64,000 nt of DNA, from the NCBI RefSeq assembly GCF_030452765.1, contig NZ_JAKDLO010000001.1:25273-89272 (forward strand), given 5' to 3'. Position 1 is the stretch's first letter. Every line of letters begins with the position of its first letter. The position numbers and the translations under genes are program-made. Under the pieces are notes generated by a model, which was given only the letters and a program-made list of their open reading frames with translations, was not told the origin of the DNA and ran no database searches. The stretch comes from Intrasporangium sp. (GTDB lineage Bacteria; Actinomycetota; Actinomycetes; Actinomycetales; Dermatophilaceae). Shown here piece after piece: positions 7,595-57,002 of this stretch.

Positions 7595-8860
7595 TCAGGT
7601 GAGCAGTTCCTCGACGACGTCCAGCACGGCGGCGGCGACCACGTCCTTGCTCGCCGGGCCGACCGAGACGACCTCGGGCACGTCGCGGCGCAGCAGGTGC
7701 ACGGTGTTGTCGTCGCGCCCGAACGCCTTGTCGCGGCCGACCTCGTTGACGACCTGCAGGTCGCTGCCCTTCCTGGCGAACTTGGCCACAGCGTGGTCCA
7801 TGACCGAGCCGGTGGCATCGCCGGTCTCGGCGGCGAAGCTGACGATGACAGGACGCCTCGCGCCGTCCCGGCGCGCGACCAGGCCCCTGACGATGTCGGG
7901 GTTCTCGACGAGATCGAGCCGCAGCCCGGCATCGGGGTCGGCGCCCTTCTTGATCTTGCTCGCGCTCGCCGAGACCGGACGGAAGTCGGCGGGGGCGGCA
8001 GCCATGATCACCGCGTCCGCGTCGCGGGCCGCGGTCTCGACCGCGTCCTTCAGCTCCAGCGTGGTCTCGACGCGGACGACGGTGACCCCGGGTGGGGTCG
8101 GCAGGCTGACGTTGGCCGCGACCAGAACGACCCGCGCTCCCCGCTGGGAGGCGACCTCTGCGATGGCGAGGCCCTGCTTGCCCGAGGACCGGTTGCCGAG
8201 GTAGCGCACCGGGTCGAGCGGCTCTCGGGTGCCCCCGGCGGAGACGACGACGGTGCGGCCGGTGAGGCTCTTGTGCCCGTATGCCGCCATGCTTGCTCCC
8301 GGCGCATCCCCGGTCTGCGCCGGGTCGGCTACCCCCTCGCCGACGGCGCCGAGCGCGGCGGCATACACCTGCTCGGGCTCCGGCAGGCGCCCCTTGCCCG
8401 AGTCGGCGCCGGTCAGACGGCCCTCGGCCGGGTCGATGACGTGCGCTCCGCGCCGGCGCAGGGTCTCGACGTTGGCCTGCGTCGCGGGGTGCTCCCACAT
8501 CTCGGTGTGCATCGCCGGGGCGAAGACGACCGGGCAGCGCGCGGTCAGCAGCGTGTTGGTCAGCAGGTCGTCGGCGATGCCCGCGGCAGCCTTGGCCAGC
8601 AGGTCGGCTGTCGCCGGGACGACGACGACGAGATCGGCGCTCTGGCCGATCCGCACGTGCGGCACCTGGTGGACGTCGGTCCATACGTCGGTGCTCACCG
8701 GGCGGCCGGAGAGCGCGGCCCAGGTCGGCGCGCCGACGAAGCGCAGCGCCGCCTCGGTGGGCACGACGGTCACCTCGTGCCCGGTCTCGGTGAACCGGCG
8801 CACGAGCGAGCAGGCCTTGTAGGCCGCGATCCCACCACCGACGCCGACGACGACGCGCAT
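7595..8860 (-). CDS. coaBC: Bifunctional phosphopantothenoylcysteine decarboxylase/ligase
   Basis: [38 protein letters not shown]; interdomain linker looks longer than usual. Confidence 0.97.
8279..8366. repeat. Branched palindrome bounded by inverted GTATGCCGCC arms, inside coaBC
   Basis: Outer stem GTATGCCGCC/GGCGGCATAC (8279-8288/8357-8366); inner stems CCCGGCGCA/TGCGCCGGG (8298-8306/8316-8324) and GTCGGC/GCCGAC (8324-8329/8339-8344). Confidence 0.75.
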
Positions 8861-17095: not shown

Positions 17096-18075
17096 GCCTG
17101 GGCCCCTTGCGTGACAGGCTCGACGGACTCGGCGGTCTCTCCGGCGAGCAGGTGGTAGAGCACGGCCATCCGCACGGCGACCCCGGCGGAGACCTGGTCG
17201 AGGACGACCGACTGTGGGGCATCGGCGACCTCGGCCGCGATCTCGAGCCCGCGGTTCATCGGGCCGGGGTGCATGACCAGCACGTCAGGATTCCGGGCGA
17301 CGAGACGCGCGAGCCGCTCACCTGTCAGGCCGTACCCGACGGTGTACTCGCGGGGCGTCGGGAAGTAGCCACCCGTCATCCGCTCGCGTTGGACCCGCAG
17401 CATCATCATCGCGTCGACGGGGGCGTCACCGTCGACGACGGCGTCCAGGTCCCAGCTCGTCGCGAAGCCGTCCGATTCGCTCCACTCCCGGACCCCGGCG
17501 GGCATCAGGGTCGGCGGGGCGACGACGGTGACGTGGGCACCGAGCGTGTGCAGGGTGATGATGTTGCTCCGGAAGACCCGCGAGTGGGTCAGGTCGCCGA
17601 CGATGGCCACGTGTTTGCCGTCGAGGTCCCCCATCCGGCTGCGGAGCGTGTAGGCGTCGAGCAGGGCCTGCGTCGGGTGCTCATGCGTGCCATCGCCGGC
17701 GTTGATGACACTGCAGCGGACCCATTCGGAGACCTGCCTGGCGGCGCCGGAGGCGTTGTGCCGGATGACGAGGGCGTCGACCGCCATGGCATCGACGGTC
17801 AGCGCCGTGTCACGCAGGCTCTCGCCCTTCGAGGCCGACGAGCCCTTGGCCGACAGGTTGATCGTGTCGGCCGACATCCACTTGCCCGCGATCTCGAAGG
17901 AGGACCGGGTGCGGGTCGAGTCCTCGAAGAAGAAGTTGATGACGGTTCGCCCCCGCAGGGTCGGGACCTTCTTCACCTCGCGCCGCTGCACGTCATGCAT
18001 CGACTCGGCGGTGGTCAGGATCGACTCGACGTCGTGCCGGGTCAGGTCGGCGGACGAGATGAGGTGGCGGTTCAC
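17092..18075 (-). CDS. pyrB: Aspartate carbamoyltransferase catalytic subunit
   Basis: [32 protein letters not shown]. Confidence 0.97.
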
Positions 18076-18662
18076 CGGCGGTCACCGCCGCTGATCCGTA
18101 CGACGTCCTCGCCGTCGACCTCGGTGACCCGCACGTGGACGCGTTCGTTGCGGGCAGTCGGCAGGTTCTTGCCGACGTGGTCGGCCCGGATGGGCAGCTC
18201 TCGGTGGCCGCGGTCGACGAGCACCGCGAGCCGGACCGCGCGGGGCCGGCCGAGCTCCGCGAGAGCGTCGAGGGCGGCCCTGATCGTCCGACCGGAGTAG
18301 AGCACGTCGTCGACCAGGACGACGATGCGGTCGTCGATGCCGACCTCGGGGATGACGGAGCGGCCGGCCGGGCGCGTGGGCTGTCGTCGCAGGTCGTCGC
18401 GGTAGAGGGTCACGTCGAGCTGCCCGACGGGGATCTCGACTCCCTCGACCGAACCGATCGCGGCGGCGAGCCGGTCGGCGAGCGCCACGCCACGCGTGGG
18501 GATACCGAGCACGACGAGCTCACTCGCGCCCTTGTTGCGTTCGATGATCTCGTGGCCGATGCGCCGCAGCGCCCGGGCGATGTCGTCCGCGCTCATGACG
18601 TCACGCGCATCCGGAGGGATCTGTGCAACGGTGGCCGGTGCAGTGGGCTCAGGGCAGGTCAC
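18072..18662 (-). CDS. pyrR: Bifunctional pyr operon regulator/uracil phosphoribosyltransferase
   Basis: [61 protein letters not shown]; GTG at 18662 after an AGGAGG RBS. Confidence 0.96.
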
Positions 18663-18671
18663 GCGGCCTGA

Positions 18672-18707
18672 CCTCCTTCCCCGCCTCACAGGACGGTGGT
18701 TAAAGGA
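18672..18707 (-). promoter_or_regulatory. PyrR-binding RNA element overlapping the pyrR RBS
   Basis: Minus strand UCCUUUAA-CCACC-GUCCUGUGAGGCGG-GGAAGGAGG matches the CUUUAA and GUCCnGnGAGG consensus of PyrR binding loops; TACACT -10 box at 18723-18728. Confidence 0.85.
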
Positions 18708-18796
18708 CGTCGATCGCGAGTGAGTGTACCTGTTCAGCGCACCTGCTCCCGGCACCGTCCACATCGCGCCGCGCTCTCCCCGCTCTCCCCCTCTCC

Positions 18797-19082
18797 CCCG
18801 ATCGAGAGTTCACCTTTTCCGATCGACAGTGCGCCAGTCCTGATCGACAGTGCGCCAATCCTGATCGACAGTGCGCCAATCCTGATCGACAGTTCACTAC
18901 TCGTGATCGACAGTGCAGTCGGGTGAACTCTCGATCAGGAAAAGTGCTCTCTCGAACGAGGTTTCAGCACTCTCGATCGAGATGCCTGCACTCTCGATCG
19001 AGATGCCTGCACTCTCGATCGAGACTCCTGCACTCTCGATCGAGACTCCTGCACTCTCGAGTGAGATTCCTGCACTCTCGAT
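18797..19082. repeat. Two inverted arrays of a 21-bp tandem repeat (about 290-bp composite palindrome)
   Basis: GATCGA(C/G)AGT.. at 18800, 18821, 18842, 18863, 18884, 18905; reverse-oriented G(C/A)(A/T)CTCTCGA.. at 18925, 18946, 18967, 18988, 19009, 19030, 19051, 19072; centre near 18920. Confidence 0.95.
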
Positions 19083-19107
19083 GGGGGTGGGGGCTGGGGG
19101 CAGCCCG

Positions 19108-19566
19108 TCACGCCTCCATGAGAGTTGCCGCCAGTGTTCCGCCCAGCTCGAACGCGGCCTCCCGAACGGACTTGTCCACAGGCCCGGTCACCAGCAGCGG
19201 CTGCGCCGCCATGACCCAGCCGAGCGCCTGCGCGATCGACTCGATGCCCCGGCGGGCCCCTTCGGTGTCGTTGTTGCCGTGCACCCAGTAGCCATACGGC
19301 ATCCCCGTCTTCGCTTCGAGGGTCGGGTAGTAGACCGTGTCGAAGAAGTGCTTGAGGGCACCGGACATGTAGCCGATGTTGGCCGGTGTCCCGAGCAGCA
19401 CGCCGTCGGCCGCGAGCAGGTCGCTCGCGGTGGCCGACAGCGCCGGCCGCACCTCCACCTCGACGCCTTCGATGCCCTCGGCGTGGGTCCCGGAGACGGC
19501 GGCCTCGAGGATCTCCTGCACGGCCGGGGACGGCGTGTGGTGCACGACGAGGAGGTGGGCGCTCAC
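19108..19566 (-). CDS. Flavodoxin-family (WrbA/FMN reductase-like fold) protein
   Basis: LLVVHHTPS, ADGVLLGTPANIGYMSGALKHFFD, HGNNDTEGA. Confidence 0.82.
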   Translation of the reverse strand: MSAHLLVVHHTPSPAVQEILEAAVSGTHAEGIEGVEVEVRPALSATASDLLAADGVLLGTPANIGYMSGALKHFFDTVYYPTLEAKTGMPYGYWVHGNNDTEGARRGIESIAQALGWVMAAQPLLVTGPVDKSVREAAFELGGTLAATLMEA

Positions 19567-19669
19567 CCGCCCAACCTATGCCGTATGGCGCCGAGCCGCG
19601 CCCAGCCCCGTGTGGTCCTCCCGGTGTCATCGGGAGCAAGCCCAGCGGCATACGGCTACCGTCGTGGGG

Positions 19670-20104
19670 ATGGACCAGCGACTCAACTTCATCACACTCG
19701 CAGTCGCCGACCCGGCTGCATCGCGGCGGTTCTACGCGGACGGGCTCGGGTGGGAGCCGGCCTTCGAGGCGCCCGGGGAGGTCGTCTTCTTCCGGATGGC
19801 ACCGACGATCGTGCTGTCCTTGTGGCGTGCCGACGACTTCGAGGCCGAGGCCGGACCGCTCGACAGGGAGCCGGGCAGGGCACCGATCACCTTGTCGCAC
19901 AACGTCCCTACGCCTGAGCAGGTCGACGCGGTGATCGCCGACGCCGTGAGAGCGGGAGCCCGGCTCGTGGCAGCGGCGAAGGACCGCGACTGGGGTGGCC
20001 GGTCCGGCTACTTCGCCGACCTCGACGGCTACCGCTGGGAGGTCGCGTACAACCCCGGGCCACTCGACAAGGACCTCATGCGGGCGGCGGGCCTGCTGCC
20101 CTGA
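19670..20104 (+). CDS. VOC/glyoxalase-family protein
   Basis: MDQRLNFITLAVADPAASRRFYADGLGW..WGGRSGYFADLDGYRWEVAYNP. Confidence 0.88.
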   Translation: MDQRLNFITLAVADPAASRRFYADGLGWEPAFEAPGEVVFFRMAPTIVLSLWRADDFEAEAGPLDREPGRAPITLSHNVPTPEQVDAVIADAVRAGARLVAAAKDRDWGGRSGYFADLDGYRWEVAYNPGPLDKDLMRAAGLLP

Positions 20105-53293: not shown

Positions 53294-54406
53294 TCATGGG
53301 CCGGTGAGCGACTCGTAGCGCCGGGCCCACTGGCGTGCCTCCTGCTCGGGGGTGGCCCAGGTGCGGGCGCGCGCTCGTGCGCGGGCGGCGAGGTCGGCTC
53401 GTCGTGACGGGTCGCGCAACAGGTCGTCCACGGCGGTGGCGGTGGCTGTGGGGTCGGCGGGTGGCACGAGGACTCCTGCGTCGCCGACCAGGCCGGGCAG
53501 CCCGCCGACCGCGGGGACGACGACCGGCACACCGGCCGCCAGCGCCTCCTGCACGACGAGCGCCCGCGCCTCCCATCGGCTCGTCAGGACCAGGACGGTC
53601 GCCGCCCGCAGCCACGCCTCGACGTCCCCGCGCGCCCCCACGAACGTCAGCGGTATGCCGCCCACCTCGCTCTCGAGCCGGCGGCGCAGCTGCGCGTCGC
53701 CGCCTCCCACGACGACCCAGGTGGCCGGTAGGGTCGAGGCGCGGGCCGCGGCGACGAGCGTGGCGAGGTCCTTCTGCGGGGCGATCCGGGACACCGTGAG
53801 GACGAGGGGCCGGTCGGCGGGTGCGTCGATCCCGGCCGACGCGAGCAGTGCCTGCCGCAAGCGGGCGCCCTCATCGGCGTCGGGTGCGTCGGGTGCTTCG
53901 GAAGCCGCCAGGATGGCGGCGGCGCGGGGTGAGGCCACCGTCGCCAGCTCGCTCCGGCGGGCGCCGAGCCGCAGGGCCGTCGCGACGAGGTCGTCGCTCG
54001 CTCCGGCGACGAGGTCGGCTCGGCGCAGGGCCCAGCGGATCGCCCTGGCACCGAGCCCGTCCGCGGGCACCTCGTTGTGCAGGGAGACGACCAGGCGGGG
54101 CCGCGGCCTGGCGCGCAGCACCGCCACCGCGGCGACGAGCGCCGCCTGCTGCCCGTGGGCGTGCACGACCTCGACGGTGCAGGCGAGCCGCATGATGCGG
54201 TGCCAGTCGAGCGGGGCTCGGGCCACCGCCTCGGCGGAGCCGAAGGGCCACAGGGCGTGCGCGTCGGTCCAGCCGAAGTGGCGCACGCTCGATCGGTCGC
54301 TGACGATCACCACCTCGTGGCCGAGACTTCTCAGGTCGTGGCTGAGTCGGCCGACATGGCTGCCGATCCCGCCGGCCGACCGGCCGAGCAGCTGCAGGAT
54401 CCTCAT
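53294..54406 (-). CDS. Glycosyltransferase family 4 (GT-B)
   Basis: MRILQLL...[37 protein letters not shown]. Confidence 0.9.
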
Positions 54407-56151
54407 CGTGTCTCCCTGGGTGGAGGGTCGGTGCTCGTGGCACCGTTGACCGTCGGATCGGTGCTCGTGGCATCGGTGGTCGTGACATCGGAGCGCGTGG
54501 CATCGGTGGCCGTGCGGCGTCGTAGCAGCCGGCGCAGCATGCTGCGGTCGGTGGCGGCCCCGGCCGCGGCGAAGAGCACGGTCGCGAGCAGGCCCGACGC
54601 GACGGTCGCCAGGGCAGCGGCGGGTAGGTCGGCCGGGCGCCAGGTCGCGCCCAGCCACCATCCGGCGAGCGCCGCCACGGCGGTGGCGAGCAGGGCCGCG
54701 CCGAGTGGGCGCGCCGGTGGGCGCAGGGCGGCCGCACCCCAGGCCCGTGCGGCCAGCACGGTCAGGCAGGCCGCTGCGGCCAGCAGCCCGATGCTCGAGC
54801 CGGCACCGATGGCGCTCAGGGTGTCGTCGGGCCCCGGTGCATCGCGCAGCACGATCAGGGGTAGGGCGAGTGTCAGCAGCCATCCGCTGCCGGCGGCCGC
54901 TCCGGCCGTGCGGGCATGCCCGCGCACGTAGAGGGCGCGGGTCAGCAGGCCGATCGCGCCGAGGCCGAGGATCCCCGGGGCGAACGAGACCATCGTCGTC
55001 GGGATCGCGGCCAGGGCCGCAGCGCCCGACCCCGCCGACCGTCCGGCGTCGAGGGCGCTGAAGAACGCACCGACCGGCTGGGCGACGGCGACGAGCAGGG
55101 CGACCCCGTAGAGGCCGGCCACGAGGGTGCCGAGCCAGGCCCCGCGCAGCGTGCGGGCCGCGGAGTCGTCCTCGCGGCTCGTCGAGGCCCCGGACGGGCC
55201 GGCCGCCTGGCTGGCCAGGGTCGGGAAGGCTGCCGTCGCGAGCGGGACGGCCAGGACGGCATACGGGAGCAGGGCGACGGCCTGAACGTAGGTGAACACG
55301 TTGAGCGTGCCGGGCCCCCCGCGGTCGTTCGCGAGGCGGATGACGACCAGCGTCGCGAGCTGTTGCCCGGCCAGTGCGAGCAGCCCGGCGACGGCCAACC
55401 GCCGGACCCGCGCCGACGCGGTGTCGGGGAAGCGGAAGGTCGGCCGGAGCCGGATGCCGGCTCTTCGCAGGGGTACGAGCAGGGGCAGGCTGAGGGCGAC
55501 GACCCCGAGGGTCGTGCCGATCCCGAGCACGAGGACGGCGGCGCCCGGAATGGCGGAAAGGGGCGCGGCAGGATCGGGCACGAGGGCGCCGTAGAGCAGG
55601 TACGTGGCGATGACGACGACACTGGACAGGAGCGGCGCGAGGGCCGCGGCCACGAAGCGACGGTGCGACTGGAGGACTCCGGCCAGGACGATCCCGACGC
55701 CGTACAGCGGTATCTGGATCGCGAAGATCCGCAGCAGGTCGACGCCGAGGCCCAGCTCACCGGAGCACCCCTGGGCGGGCAGGAGCACGCCGGCGATGGG
55801 GCCGGCGGCGGCCACGACGACGAGCGCCAGCGGGACGAGCCCGGCGAGCGCCCAGGTCAGCAGGGCCGAGGCGGTGCGGTCGGCGGCATCCGGCTCCCCG
55901 CGGCCCAGCGCCGCGGAGACGAGCGGCACGACGACCGCGGCCAGGACACCCCCGGCGGCGATCTCGTAGAGGACGTTCGGGACGGTGTTGACGCTCTGGT
56001 AGACCGTGCCGACGCAGGTGGCCCCGACGGAGTGCGAGAAGGCGAACCAGCGGCCGAAGCCGACGAGCCGCGCGGCGATGGTGATGCCCGCGATGGAGCC
56101 GGCCGCGACGGCGATGCCCCGCCCGGTCCGGCTCATCCCGGTCCGGTTCAC
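54403..56151 (-). CDS. MurJ/MviN-like lipid-linked flippase (no cytoplasmic kinase-like extension)
   Basis: ARLVGFGR, YQSVNTVPNVLYEIAAGG, LQSHRRF..AALAPLLSS, RALY; about 14 TM segments; alternative start ATG 56136. Confidence 0.85.
   Translation of the reverse strand: MNRTGMSRTGRGIAVAAGSIAGITIAARLVGFGRWFAFSHSVGATCVGTVYQSVNTVPNVLYEIAAGGVLAAVVVPLVSAALGRGEPDAADRTASALLTWALAGLVPLALVVVAAAGPIAGVLLPAQGCSGELGLGVDLLRIFAIQIPLYGVGIVLAGVLQSHRRFVAAALAPLLSSVVVIATYLLYGALVPDPAAPLSAIPGAAVLVLGIGTTLGVVALSLPLLVPLRRAGIRLRPTFRFPDTASARVRRLAVAGLLALAGQQLATLVVIRLANDRGGPGTLNVFTYVQAVALLPYAVLAVPLATAAFPTLASQAAGPSGASTSREDDSAARTLRGAWLGTLVAGLYGVALLVAVAQPVGAFFSALDAGRSAGSGAAALAAIPTTMVSFAPGILGLGAIGLLTRALYVRGHARTAGAAAGSGWLLTLALPLIVLRDAPGPDDTLSAIGAGSSIGLLAAAACLTVLAARAWGAAALRPPARPLGAALLATAVAALAGWWLGATWRPADLPAAALATVASGLLATVLFAAAGAATDRSMLRRLLRRRTATDATRSDVTTTDATSTDPTVNGATSTDPPPRETR
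54428..54517 (-). repeat. Three imperfect 30-bp in-frame repeats in the MurJ-like C-terminal tail
   Basis: Units start at 54428, 54458 and 54488 (TCGG(T/A)GC(T/G)CGTGGCA..) and encode TDAT(R/S)(S/T)D repeats. Confidence 0.8.
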
Positions 56152-57002
56152 GGCGACGACGGGCGCTCGGGTGGGCGGCCCCACTGGTCGAGGCGGCGCA
56201 GCAGGGGCTGCCGGTCGATGACCGCGGAGAAGCTGACCCGCTCGGAGGCGAGTGTGAGGCCGGTGAGGACAGCGAGGGCGAGCGAGCGAGCGAGGAGCCC
56301 ACTCCGCTCGACGAGCGCCAGGCCGAGCAGGGCGCCGGCCGCGTTGGCGCCCGTGTCGCCGAGCATCGAACGTCCGGCGAGGTCGTCGGCGATGACGCCG
56401 AGCGTGGCGCCGAGCGCGGCGGCTGCCGGCGCGCCACCGGGCGAGAGGGGCATGCCGAGCACGATGACGGACTTGAGGGCCCGCCCGGGACGCAGGTCGA
56501 GCAGGTTGACGAGGTTGGCGGTCCCGGCGATGACCCCGCCACCGACGAGGACGCCGGCGAGGCGCCCCGGCCCGGCACCCGCGCGGGCACCTGGCCGGGG
56601 GAGGTCGACCGCCGCGGTGGCCGCGATCCCGCTCGCGGCCAGCCCGATCAGCTTGACCGCTCCGGTGGTCAGCTCTCCGCGGCCGAGCGCCGTGAGGTGG
56701 CCACGCAGACCCTTGCTCGTCGCCGACCCGGCGAGATCGTCGAGCATGCCGAGGCCGGCTGCCGTCACGACGAGCGCCGCCGCCGTGGTCCGCCCGCCGG
56801 TGCCCGGTAGGACCAGCCCGCCGACGGCGCCGAGGAGCCAGACCGGGCCCTCGAGGAGGGTGACGGGATCACCGGCGTGGTTGGTCCGTGCCCATGGGCG
56901 GCGCGTGTGCTCCGGCAGCCACGGGCAGAGCCTCATCCCTGCTGCGGACAGGGCCGCAGCGAGGGCGAGCCGGGCCGCGCCGTCGGCGGCCGTCACCGGC
57001 AC
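56148..57002 (-). CDS. MraY/WecA-like polyprenyl-phosphate sugar-phosphate transferase-family membrane protein
   Basis: LGMLDDLAG (DD motif), NLVNLLDLRPG, MLGDTGANAAG resemble PNPT family motifs. Confidence 0.65.
   Translation of the reverse strand: MPVTAADGAARLALAAALSAAGMRLCPWLPEHTRRPWARTNHAGDPVTLLEGPVWLLGAVGGLVLPGTGGRTTAAALVVTAAGLGMLDDLAGSATSKGLRGHLTALGRGELTTGAVKLIGLAASGIAATAAVDLPRPGARAGAGPGRLAGVLVGGGVIAGTANLVNLLDLRPGRALKSVIVLGMPLSPGGAPAAAALGATLGVIADDLAGRSMLGDTGANAAGALLGLALVERSGLLARSLALAVLTGLTLASERVSFSAVIDRQPLLRRLDQWGRPPERPSSP

Follow-up and report, generated by a model that had tools for sequence, protein, structure and literature searches.

A palindromic array of 21-bp repeats between a flavodoxin-like gene and pyrR of Intrasporangium, and its candidate partner nuclease

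What is a composite palindrome, built of 21-bp repeats, doing in the gap between a flavodoxin-like gene and the pyrimidine operon of an Intrasporangium? The original prediction, made from the letters of the window (the whole stretch of 64,000 nucleotides analysed here), had set three answers side by side: a long RNA hairpin or DNA cruciform that insulates the pyr promoter, a phased protein-binding array, or an orphan member of a dispersed tandem-repeat family, for which similar arrays beside DUF559-type nuclease genes were named. The closest proteins to those encoded in the window are from Intrasporangium (Micrococcales, Intrasporangiaceae), with the best match being 92% identical.

The array at the pyr locus

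Direct reading of the sequence resolves positions 18800-19083 into 14 contiguous 21-bp units, six on the plus strand and eight on the minus strand, with a spacing of exactly 21 bp across both arms, just as had been described (6 + 8 opposed units meeting near 18920). The six units of the left arm (18800..18916, plus strand) consist of a core, GATCGAsAGTkC, and a variable tail ending in TCCy; the cores start at 18800, 18821, 18842, 18863, 18884 and 18905, and three of the units are near-identical (GATCGACAGTGCGCCAATCCT). The right arm (18925..19083, minus strand) has eight 21-bp units in the opposite orientation, with cores at 18925-36, 18946-57 (degenerate), 18967-78, 18988-99, 19009-20, 19030-41, 19051-62 (degenerate) and 19072-83; the 12-bp palindrome noticed earlier in several right-arm units is TCTCGATCGAGA and is present in four of them (18971, 18992, 19013 and 19034). 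The centre of the composite palindrome, from the last plus-strand core to the first minus-strand core, is AGTCGGGT (18917..18924). If one mismatch is allowed, 18800-19083 has 12 matches to the core GATCGAsAGTkC and the other 63.7 kb of the window a single one; in shuffles the mean is 1.55 and the maximum 6. Units are 90-100% identical within an arm, but the two arms are complementary to no more than about 73%: the S position of the core is C on the left and G on the right, and the linkers differ as well.

The segment is more AT-rich than its surroundings, as predicted (54-56% GC versus about 70% in the flanks), and the short repeats said to precede it are 3.1 copies of a C-rich 9-bp motif, CGCTCTCCC (18772-18798). 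This micro-repeat (18772..18799 when taken as a feature) abuts the outer end of the left arm and prolongs the C-run that precedes every unit. The outer flank of the right arm is G-rich (19084..19106, minus strand; GGGCUGCCCCCAGCCC when read on the coding strand) and is a small stem-loop directly after the stop codon of the flavodoxin-like gene; in the RNA hairpin predicted for this region its pairing partner is the C-rich left flank, and its stem is marked by a spurious Prion_pknot match. The C-rich 18772-18799 and the G-rich 19084-19104 lengthen the dyad beyond the units. Restriction-site avoidance was considered for the GATC, TCGA and CGATCG content and rejected: outside the array, the window has no shortage of these words. 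Elsewhere in the window, a 15/30-bp tandem repeat unrelated to the 21-bp family (54428-54514) encodes the Thr/Asp/Ala-rich C-terminal tail of a 593-residue multi-pass membrane protein (54403-56184, minus strand) that has no family assigned.

The palindrome is not an assembly artefact, a possibility that had been raised at the outset, because independent short-read Logan contigs from two runs span both edges and the centre without mismatch (18678-18867, 18864-18996 with the centre, and 19031-19600); these contigs are too short to verify the number of identical units inside each arm. In run X3, one low-depth contig joins 18717 to 19309 and skips 591 bp (the array and the 3' part of the flavodoxin-like gene); because of its several mismatches it probably comes from a related strain or is a chimeric unitig.

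The minus-strand gene order around the array is aroC-aroK-aroB-aroQ, efp, nusB, two oxidoreductase-type genes, the flavodoxin-like gene, the array and the pyrR operon; a gene of the glyoxalase family is the single plus-strand gene nearby. The gene upstream of the array encodes a flavodoxin-like NAD(P)H-dependent FMN reductase of 152 amino acids (19108..19566, minus strand): the array starts 24 nucleotides past its stop codon, and the other end lies 72 bp before a -10-like hexamer, TACACT (18723..18728, minus strand), that marks the inferred pyrR promoter in a by-eye alignment of five orthologous spacers. Then follow a PyrR-binding leader hairpin, UCCUUUAACCACCGUCCUGUGAGGCGGGGAAGGA (18674..18707, minus strand; RF00515 with 27 bits, below the gathering score), and pyrR itself (196 amino acids, 18072..18662, minus strand, GTG start at 18662), the first gene of pyrR-pyrB-pyrC-carA-carB. 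In the whole window no RNA family reaches its gathering score, and the array region has only sub-threshold matches (the PyrR box and the prion pseudoknot); no tRNA was found, and there is no sigma-70 promoter inside the array. An ORF on the plus strand (18913-19917) that reads the array as PALSIEM heptads is taken as spurious; it is antisense to the flavodoxin-like gene. A CRISPR-like array was rejected: in agreement with the original prediction there are no unique spacers, as the units are contiguous and the linkers repeat, and there are no cas, integrase or transposase genes in the syntenic 20 kb. A lone motif similar to the core (GATCGCGAGTGA, two mismatches) lies at the start of the pyrR leader (18712-18723); it is probably a chance resemblance or a part of the leader, because it is kept in relatives with and without the array.

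Unit numbers were compared among relatives, as had been suggested. Read along the direction of transcription, the counts are 8+6 units in the window and 5+3 units at the same place in the nearest relative, MAG AS-MESO-3CA.263 (L059/L060), whose flavodoxin-like protein is 92% identical to that of the window; the orthologous spacers of L061, I. calvum (L063) and strain DVR (L065) are 134-171 bp long and contain no array. The -10 region and the PyrR leader are conserved in all orthologous spacers, including the array-free ones: the TACACT hexamer is kept in relatives with and without the array, and the leader hairpin is near-invariant across all relatives compared. Presence, absence and unit counts across these spacers indicate that the array is a gain of one lineage that has changed in length since, and, to judge from the same comparison, it is dispensable for pyr expression.

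A dispersed family of 21-bp repeats

The suggestion that the array is an orphan member of a dispersed tandem-repeat family is strongly supported. When one genome of each species was searched for two cores in succession, at least 57 loci had this two-unit pattern, and at least 50 of these are in four Intrasporangium genomes: the MAGs AS-MESO-3CA.263 (at least 20), SMAG_U542 (at least 15) and bin063 (at least 8) and I. chromatireducens Q5-1 (at least 7). These loci have the same unit as the window, where the core GATCGAsAGTGC follows a TCCC-like run in 21-bp tandem. Many of the array loci listed are at contig ends. The consensus of 330 pooled units is GATCGAsAGTGC-RSnWnTCCC, with the conservation of the core being partly an ascertainment effect of the search pattern; put otherwise, the unit consists of a conserved block of about 17 bp (TCCC-GATCGAsAGTGC) and a variable linker of 4-5 bp. 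When Tandem Repeats Finder was applied without any core filter to 403 kb of loci, essentially every strong 21- or 42-bp array carried the core. The 42-bp super-period of many arrays (L023, L039, L048, L053, L054, L055 and L056) consists of two alternating unit variants, often with a different base at the S position; duplication may thus have proceeded by two units at a time.

About 40 of the arrays among the matches listed are one-armed (2-14 units, in either orientation, also relative to the upstream gene), 11 are head-to-head composites (for example L023 with 6+8, L056 with 7+9 and L027 with 4+4 units) and one is tail-to-tail. Unit numbers differ at orthologous loci (4/3/7; 3/6; 2+2 versus 3+3). 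In the source metagenome, the k-mer depth of arrays is up to 20 times that of the flanks, and contigs run from the array into unrelated flanks, with loose ends that lead to other loci. A list of the genes next to the unit matches, which had been proposed as a check, holds no recurrent neighbour family in 184 flanking ORFs of the listed loci, ubiquitous ABC ATPases aside, and no transposase recurs next to the arrays in these ORFs. By eye, no target-site duplication was seen at the outer ends of the window array, of L023, L027, L030 and L056 or of the nuclease gene cassettes described below, all with fuzzy boundaries and units that degenerate outward, and no sharp terminus is visible at the arrays inspected. 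A phage origin of the array was rejected: the unit pattern has no match in viral contigs. Long arrays are also present on contigs binned to other taxa (L022 1709-2003, L055 3485-3626, L050 5201-5304 and L016 2502-2620, binned to Thermoanaerobaculia, Microlunatus, Jatrophihabitans and a Micrococcales MAG, respectively); the family may be wider than Intrasporangium, or these contigs may be mis-binned. Full-text literature searches found no published description of Intrasporangium repeats, of 21-bp actinobacterial repeats or of a DUF559-repeat or AbiEi link.

About 12 arrays among the matches listed lie in frame within long ORFs of high GC3, with 21 bp corresponding to seven codons. The unit is read as SEGTHSR in FdrA (five copies; L005 2380-2491), as PIESAAV in an XdhC-like protein on two contigs of one MAG (three copies at L040 3587-3650 versus six at L051 3701-3803), as PIDSAAI in a glycosyltransferase (four copies; L046 4481-4554) and as SGEVHSR in an orthologous ABC ATPase of three genomes (four, three and seven copies at L047 632-714, L052 1755-1808 and L053 7213-7352, respectively). 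In comparison with the solved E. coli FdrA (PDB 3dmy), the array adds about 44 residues to FdrA, in the interval that separates two conserved blocks. Because the unit is translated in differing frames and orientations in these four proteins, selection acts on the DNA and not on the peptide. Most of the copies within genes are tandem arrays with a single arm; in L045, units of both orientations are present.

Inverted repeats around a nuclease gene

In L043, an ORF of 335/350 residues lies between 8 forward units and 5+4 reverse units. The arrays beside DUF559-type nuclease genes to which the original prediction referred do exist: in several genera, the same or related cores flank a DUF559/Vsr-like gene in head-to-head orientation. 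The Intrasporangium gene has one syntenic position, from an msiK-like ABC ATPase gene to a DUF4032 gene, and is always bracketed head-to-head (units -> gene <- units): by 4+4 and 9 units in L070, by a 21-bp variant with the core CGATCGARAGCAC in L072-L078, and by three forward and three reverse copies of GATCGAAAGAGCAG in I. calvum. These GATCGAAAGAGCAG repeats are found nowhere else in the approximately 29 kb of I. calvum scanned, pyr spacer included. A Humibacillus homologue with 57% identity, at an unrelated locus, has three 32-bp repeats in forward orientation upstream and five repeats of about 30 bp in reverse orientation downstream (core CGATCGAAAGAGCAG).

There are 345 homologues of the nuclease ORF at E < 1e-5, mostly on contigs of 1.1-2 kb, and these short contigs indicate that assemblies break on both sides of the gene. 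In a metagenomic set of 66 homologue loci, all nine homologues with at least 42% identity and adequate flanks have a multi-copy motif that is forward upstream and reverse downstream of the gene (GTCGAGTG, GTCGAAAG, GTCGAGAG, TCGAGTGAG; periods of 22-34 bp); in the direct-orientation control of these cassettes, few k-mers are common to both sides. Homologues below about 40% identity have no excess of inverted flanking repeats.

Unit numbers also differ at the cassette: L098 and L101, which are one locus in two samples, have 5/4 versus 3/3 units. The downstream flanks of L089 are 90% identical to those of L098 and L101, while the nuclease gene and its repeats are below 85% and the cores differ (GTCGAAAG versus GTCGAGTG); the cassette may evolve faster than its surroundings or may have been replaced in place. 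That the nuclease gene is a recently mobile cassette was rejected: synteny is kept in Intrasporangium and near-identical copies are not found in different contexts. In I. calvum (L067 3791-5065) the nuclease gene, and also the DUF4032 gene, is oppositely oriented to msiK and VKOR when compared with L070 and L072, which would fit inversions between flanking inverted repeats. Two halves of a GC-rich hairpin, GTATGCCGCTGGGC and GCCCAGCGGCATAC, lie on opposite sides of the nuclease gene of this species. A conserved long GC-rich hairpin, GTATGGCGCTGGGCCGGCACC...GGTGCCGGCCCAGCGGCATAC (L043 1723-1790, L070 ~993-1050 and L072 ~2465-2525), splits the array between msiK and the nuclease gene and may be the msiK terminator. 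At the pyr locus, the array-free spacer of L061 contains GGTCGAGTGAGACC (~8660-8675), which resembles GTCGAGTGAG, the core of other cassette variants, and could be a relic or a seed unit.

The 335-residue protein is predicted to combine an AbiEi-like winged-helix DNA-binding region with a Vsr/DUF559-type endonuclease domain; its AlphaFold (AF2) model has a pLDDT of 93 and a pTM of 0.90. Residues 30-140 match AbiEi models (PADLOC, E = 3e-4 to 2e-2), and the promoters of the genes for AbiEi and Rv2827c contain several inverted repeats to which the respective protein binds (PMC7319586). The C-terminal domain is recognised as REase_MTES_1575 (PF18741) in 27 of 32 members and as DUF559 (PF04480) in 12 of 32, with D233, E245, H252, D261 and R264 invariant in the 32 sequences. 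A PDB profile search identified the homing endonuclease I-Bth0305I (E = 0.006) and a DUF559 structure; a survey of PD-(D/E)XK nucleases groups I-Bth0305I and DUF559 with Vsr (PMC3424549). Foldseek returned weak matches (E above 0.05) to the nuclease domains of mobile elements (R2, TnsA and I-Bth0305I). The organism of the window probably carries the nuclease gene as well, because a 1210-nt contig with about 81% identity to the gene has the same depth as the contigs of the window in both runs X1 and X2.

Origin of the array and its relation to known systems

The palindrome is most likely selfish DNA in a harmless gap and not a control element of the pyrimidine genes. The putative binding site of the resident 335-residue protein is most likely the conserved block TCCC-GATCGAsAGTGC, and the phased protein-binding array of the original prediction would fit the link to the nuclease gene. 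We consider it somewhat better than an even bet that the array is a gene-less copy of the Intrasporangium 21-bp family, that is, an escaped site array of the 335-residue nuclease that spread as selfish DNA. According to this model, the protein's own gene would sit inside a head-to-head pair of its site arrays and, in one Intrasporangium sub-lineage, site arrays would have left the cassette and colonised dozens of positions, and copies would be tolerated 3' of genes, in the gap of convergent pairs and, in frame, within ORFs, with each arm growing, shrinking and homogenising independently by slippage or unequal exchange. At the pyr locus, a copy would have settled in the gap that follows the flavodoxin-like gene and precedes the pyrR promoter, once the lineage had separated from that of I. 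calvum; the window array has the head-to-head polarity of cassette ends, and 21 bp is the period of the spreading sub-lineage. Proposed local by-products are a platform for the protein, phased by two helical turns, and a long hairpin, imperfectly paired, in the 3'-terminal part of the flavodoxin-like transcript.

As to how the arrays spread, our guess is that breaks induced by the nuclease may be repaired by copying from another array, and that this break-induced copying would be followed by slippage and, where a palindrome is unstable, by the loss of one of its arms. One-armed arrays are in excess (about 40 versus 12 composites among the matches listed), which argues against simple cut-and-paste of a two-ended element and would not be expected from a simple origin as two cassette ends minus the gene. 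That nuclease and arrays together form a selfish system of a kind not recognised before, in which the protein binds phased arrays of its own site and its breaks, repaired by copying units, seed 'homing minisatellites' elsewhere on the chromosome, in-frame sites in genes among them, with the pyr palindrome as one offspring, is a tentative and rather doubtful extension of the model.

The array could instead be a plain minisatellite without any protein partner, comparable to MIRU and shaped by slippage and recombination alone, with the repeats at the nuclease gene being a historical accident or hot-spot. Unit numbers vary and units are homogenised within arms, most arrays among the matches listed are one-armed, and there is neither a recurrent neighbour gene in the at least 57 loci nor a target-site duplication at the ends inspected by eye, all of which would suit a minisatellite. 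MIRU are likewise actinobacterial, dispersed and tandem, with a unit that is a multiple of three and with strain-variable copy number, but MIRU units are about 40-100 bp long, and inverted composites, intragenic copies and the gene of a candidate cognate protein, which has these repeats on both sides, set the 21-bp family apart. A minisatellite is made unlikely by three observations: homologues from other genera and from metagenomes come with repeat variants of their own (periods of 22-34 bp and related cores), always in forward orientation on the upstream side and in reverse on the downstream side, also where the locus is unrelated; the ~29 kb of I. calvum scanned has repeats at the nuclease gene but neither at the pyr spacer nor elsewhere; and head-to-head composites outnumber tail-to-tail ones 11:1 among the matches listed.

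It is less probable still that the array is kept since its transcript forms a hairpin that terminates transcription of the flavodoxin-like gene, insulates the pyrR promoter from it or protects the mRNA 3' end. A hairpin like that of the original prediction is indeed predicted: RNA folding of 18760-19115 (minus strand) gives a single long, imperfect hairpin of about 330 nt (-188.7 kcal/mol, z = -9.2), and the position of the array directly after a stop codon, which arrays of the family often abut, would suit such a function, as would the preference for convergent (~13) and tandem (~14) over divergent (~3) junctions among the matches listed, based on crude gene calls. However, the S position is mismatched in every unit between arms of about 73% complementarity, most members of the family are one-armed and in either orientation relative to the upstream gene, and three relatives have no array; the shorter spacer of I. 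calvum has a small GC-rich inverted repeat, found by eye. An intrinsic (Rho-independent) terminator is not recognisable either: the hairpin is long and imperfect and has no T/U run, and there is no terminator-like site or T-run in 18400-19400. The hairpin after the flavodoxin-like gene is therefore probably a side effect, as indicated by the systematic arm mismatches, the missing U-run and the array-free relatives, and insulation of pyr would at most be the same, even if the predicted hairpin may hinder read-through from the flavodoxin-like gene into pyrR. A DNA cruciform, the other structure proposed for insulation, was rejected: cruciform extrusion requires near-perfect repeats, and the DNA fold of the array (-73 kcal/mol) has many internal loops, with arms that are only about 73% complementary.

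A classical MITE, here a deleted insertion sequence moved in trans by an ordinary transposase encoded elsewhere, is very improbable. The array does resemble MITEs and Rickettsia palindromic elements (RPEs) in being small, non-coding, multi-copy and palindromic, with a predicted RNA fold and presence or absence at orthologous sites, and the inverted arms, at about 73% complementarity, match the terminal inverted repeats of a MITE. In contrast to both, the family consists of 21-bp tandem units of variable number, most copies are one-armed, and the ends are variable-number arrays without fixed termini; no target-site duplication was seen at the ends inspected by eye, and no transposase recurs near the arrays. 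A gene-containing version exists, as it would for a MITE, but its protein is no known transposase and the cassette keeps synteny. RPEs sit in frame inside unrelated genes (PMC10969869), and this likeness holds for the 21-bp family, not for the window copy; RPEs differ in being about 100-150 bp long and unrelated in sequence and host, and the intragenic 21-bp copies are mostly one-armed.

Three further systems have features in common with the family. REP/BIME/REPIN elements with their RAYT are also interspersed, favour the 3' ends of genes and form mosaic arrays in alternating orientation, but the 21-bp consensus unit is asymmetric, only four window units hold the 12-bp palindrome, no Y1 (RAYT) gene recurs among the neighbour ORFs, and 21-bp copies lie inside ORFs. 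The TnsB sites of Tn7 and the ends of Mu have several direct copies of a ~20-30 bp site per end, inverted between the ends, and TnsA and I-Bth0305I are, like the partner, restriction-endonuclease-fold proteins, albeit weakly matched; the 21-bp system differs in having no DDE partner, and there is no evidence of cassette movement. The operators of the AbiEi antitoxins (S. agalactiae AbiEi and M. tuberculosis Rv2827c) resemble the cassette in the location of repeats at the protein's own gene, and the N-terminal/middle region of the partner protein matches AbiEi models; the window copy is not beside the gene, and further differences are the tandem arrays on both sides of the gene, the genome-wide multiplication of sites, the C-terminal Vsr/DUF559 nuclease in place of an antitoxicity domain and the lack of an adjacent AbiEii toxin gene.

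That the array serves a regulator of the pyr operon as its dedicated operator, or is an iteron or centromere of the plasmid type (ParR-parC), is scarcely credible and runs counter to the comparative data: the exact two-turn phasing of short direct repeats, a likely cooperative binding platform, and the location upstream of the pyrR promoter would suit such a role, but the array is absent from the spacers of I. calvum, DVR and L061 with their intact promoter and PyrR leader, the units are chromosomal and occur at dozens of loci (at least 50 unrelated ones, some inside ORFs), and there are no par or rep genes near the array, whose neighbours are the housekeeping genes aro, efp, nusB and pyr.

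Interspersed repeats are well known in bacteria, and the array belongs among them, near MITEs, RPEs and MIRU; its tandem build is unusual, and it has a candidate cognate nuclease. In the annotation of the window it is no pyr regulatory element. For the genomes that carry the family, the arrays break short-read assemblies, create variable-length heptad-repeat insertions in enzymes and transporters and supply inverted repeats that are able to drive rearrangements. A testable partner protein can now be proposed for a bacterial interspersed repeat family; to our knowledge, no such partner has ever been pinned down for MIRU or ERIC. DUF559-type proteins are very common in Actinobacteria and we know of no role for them; the 'sites -> gene <- sites' layout, conserved across genera, suggests a DNA target of these proteins.
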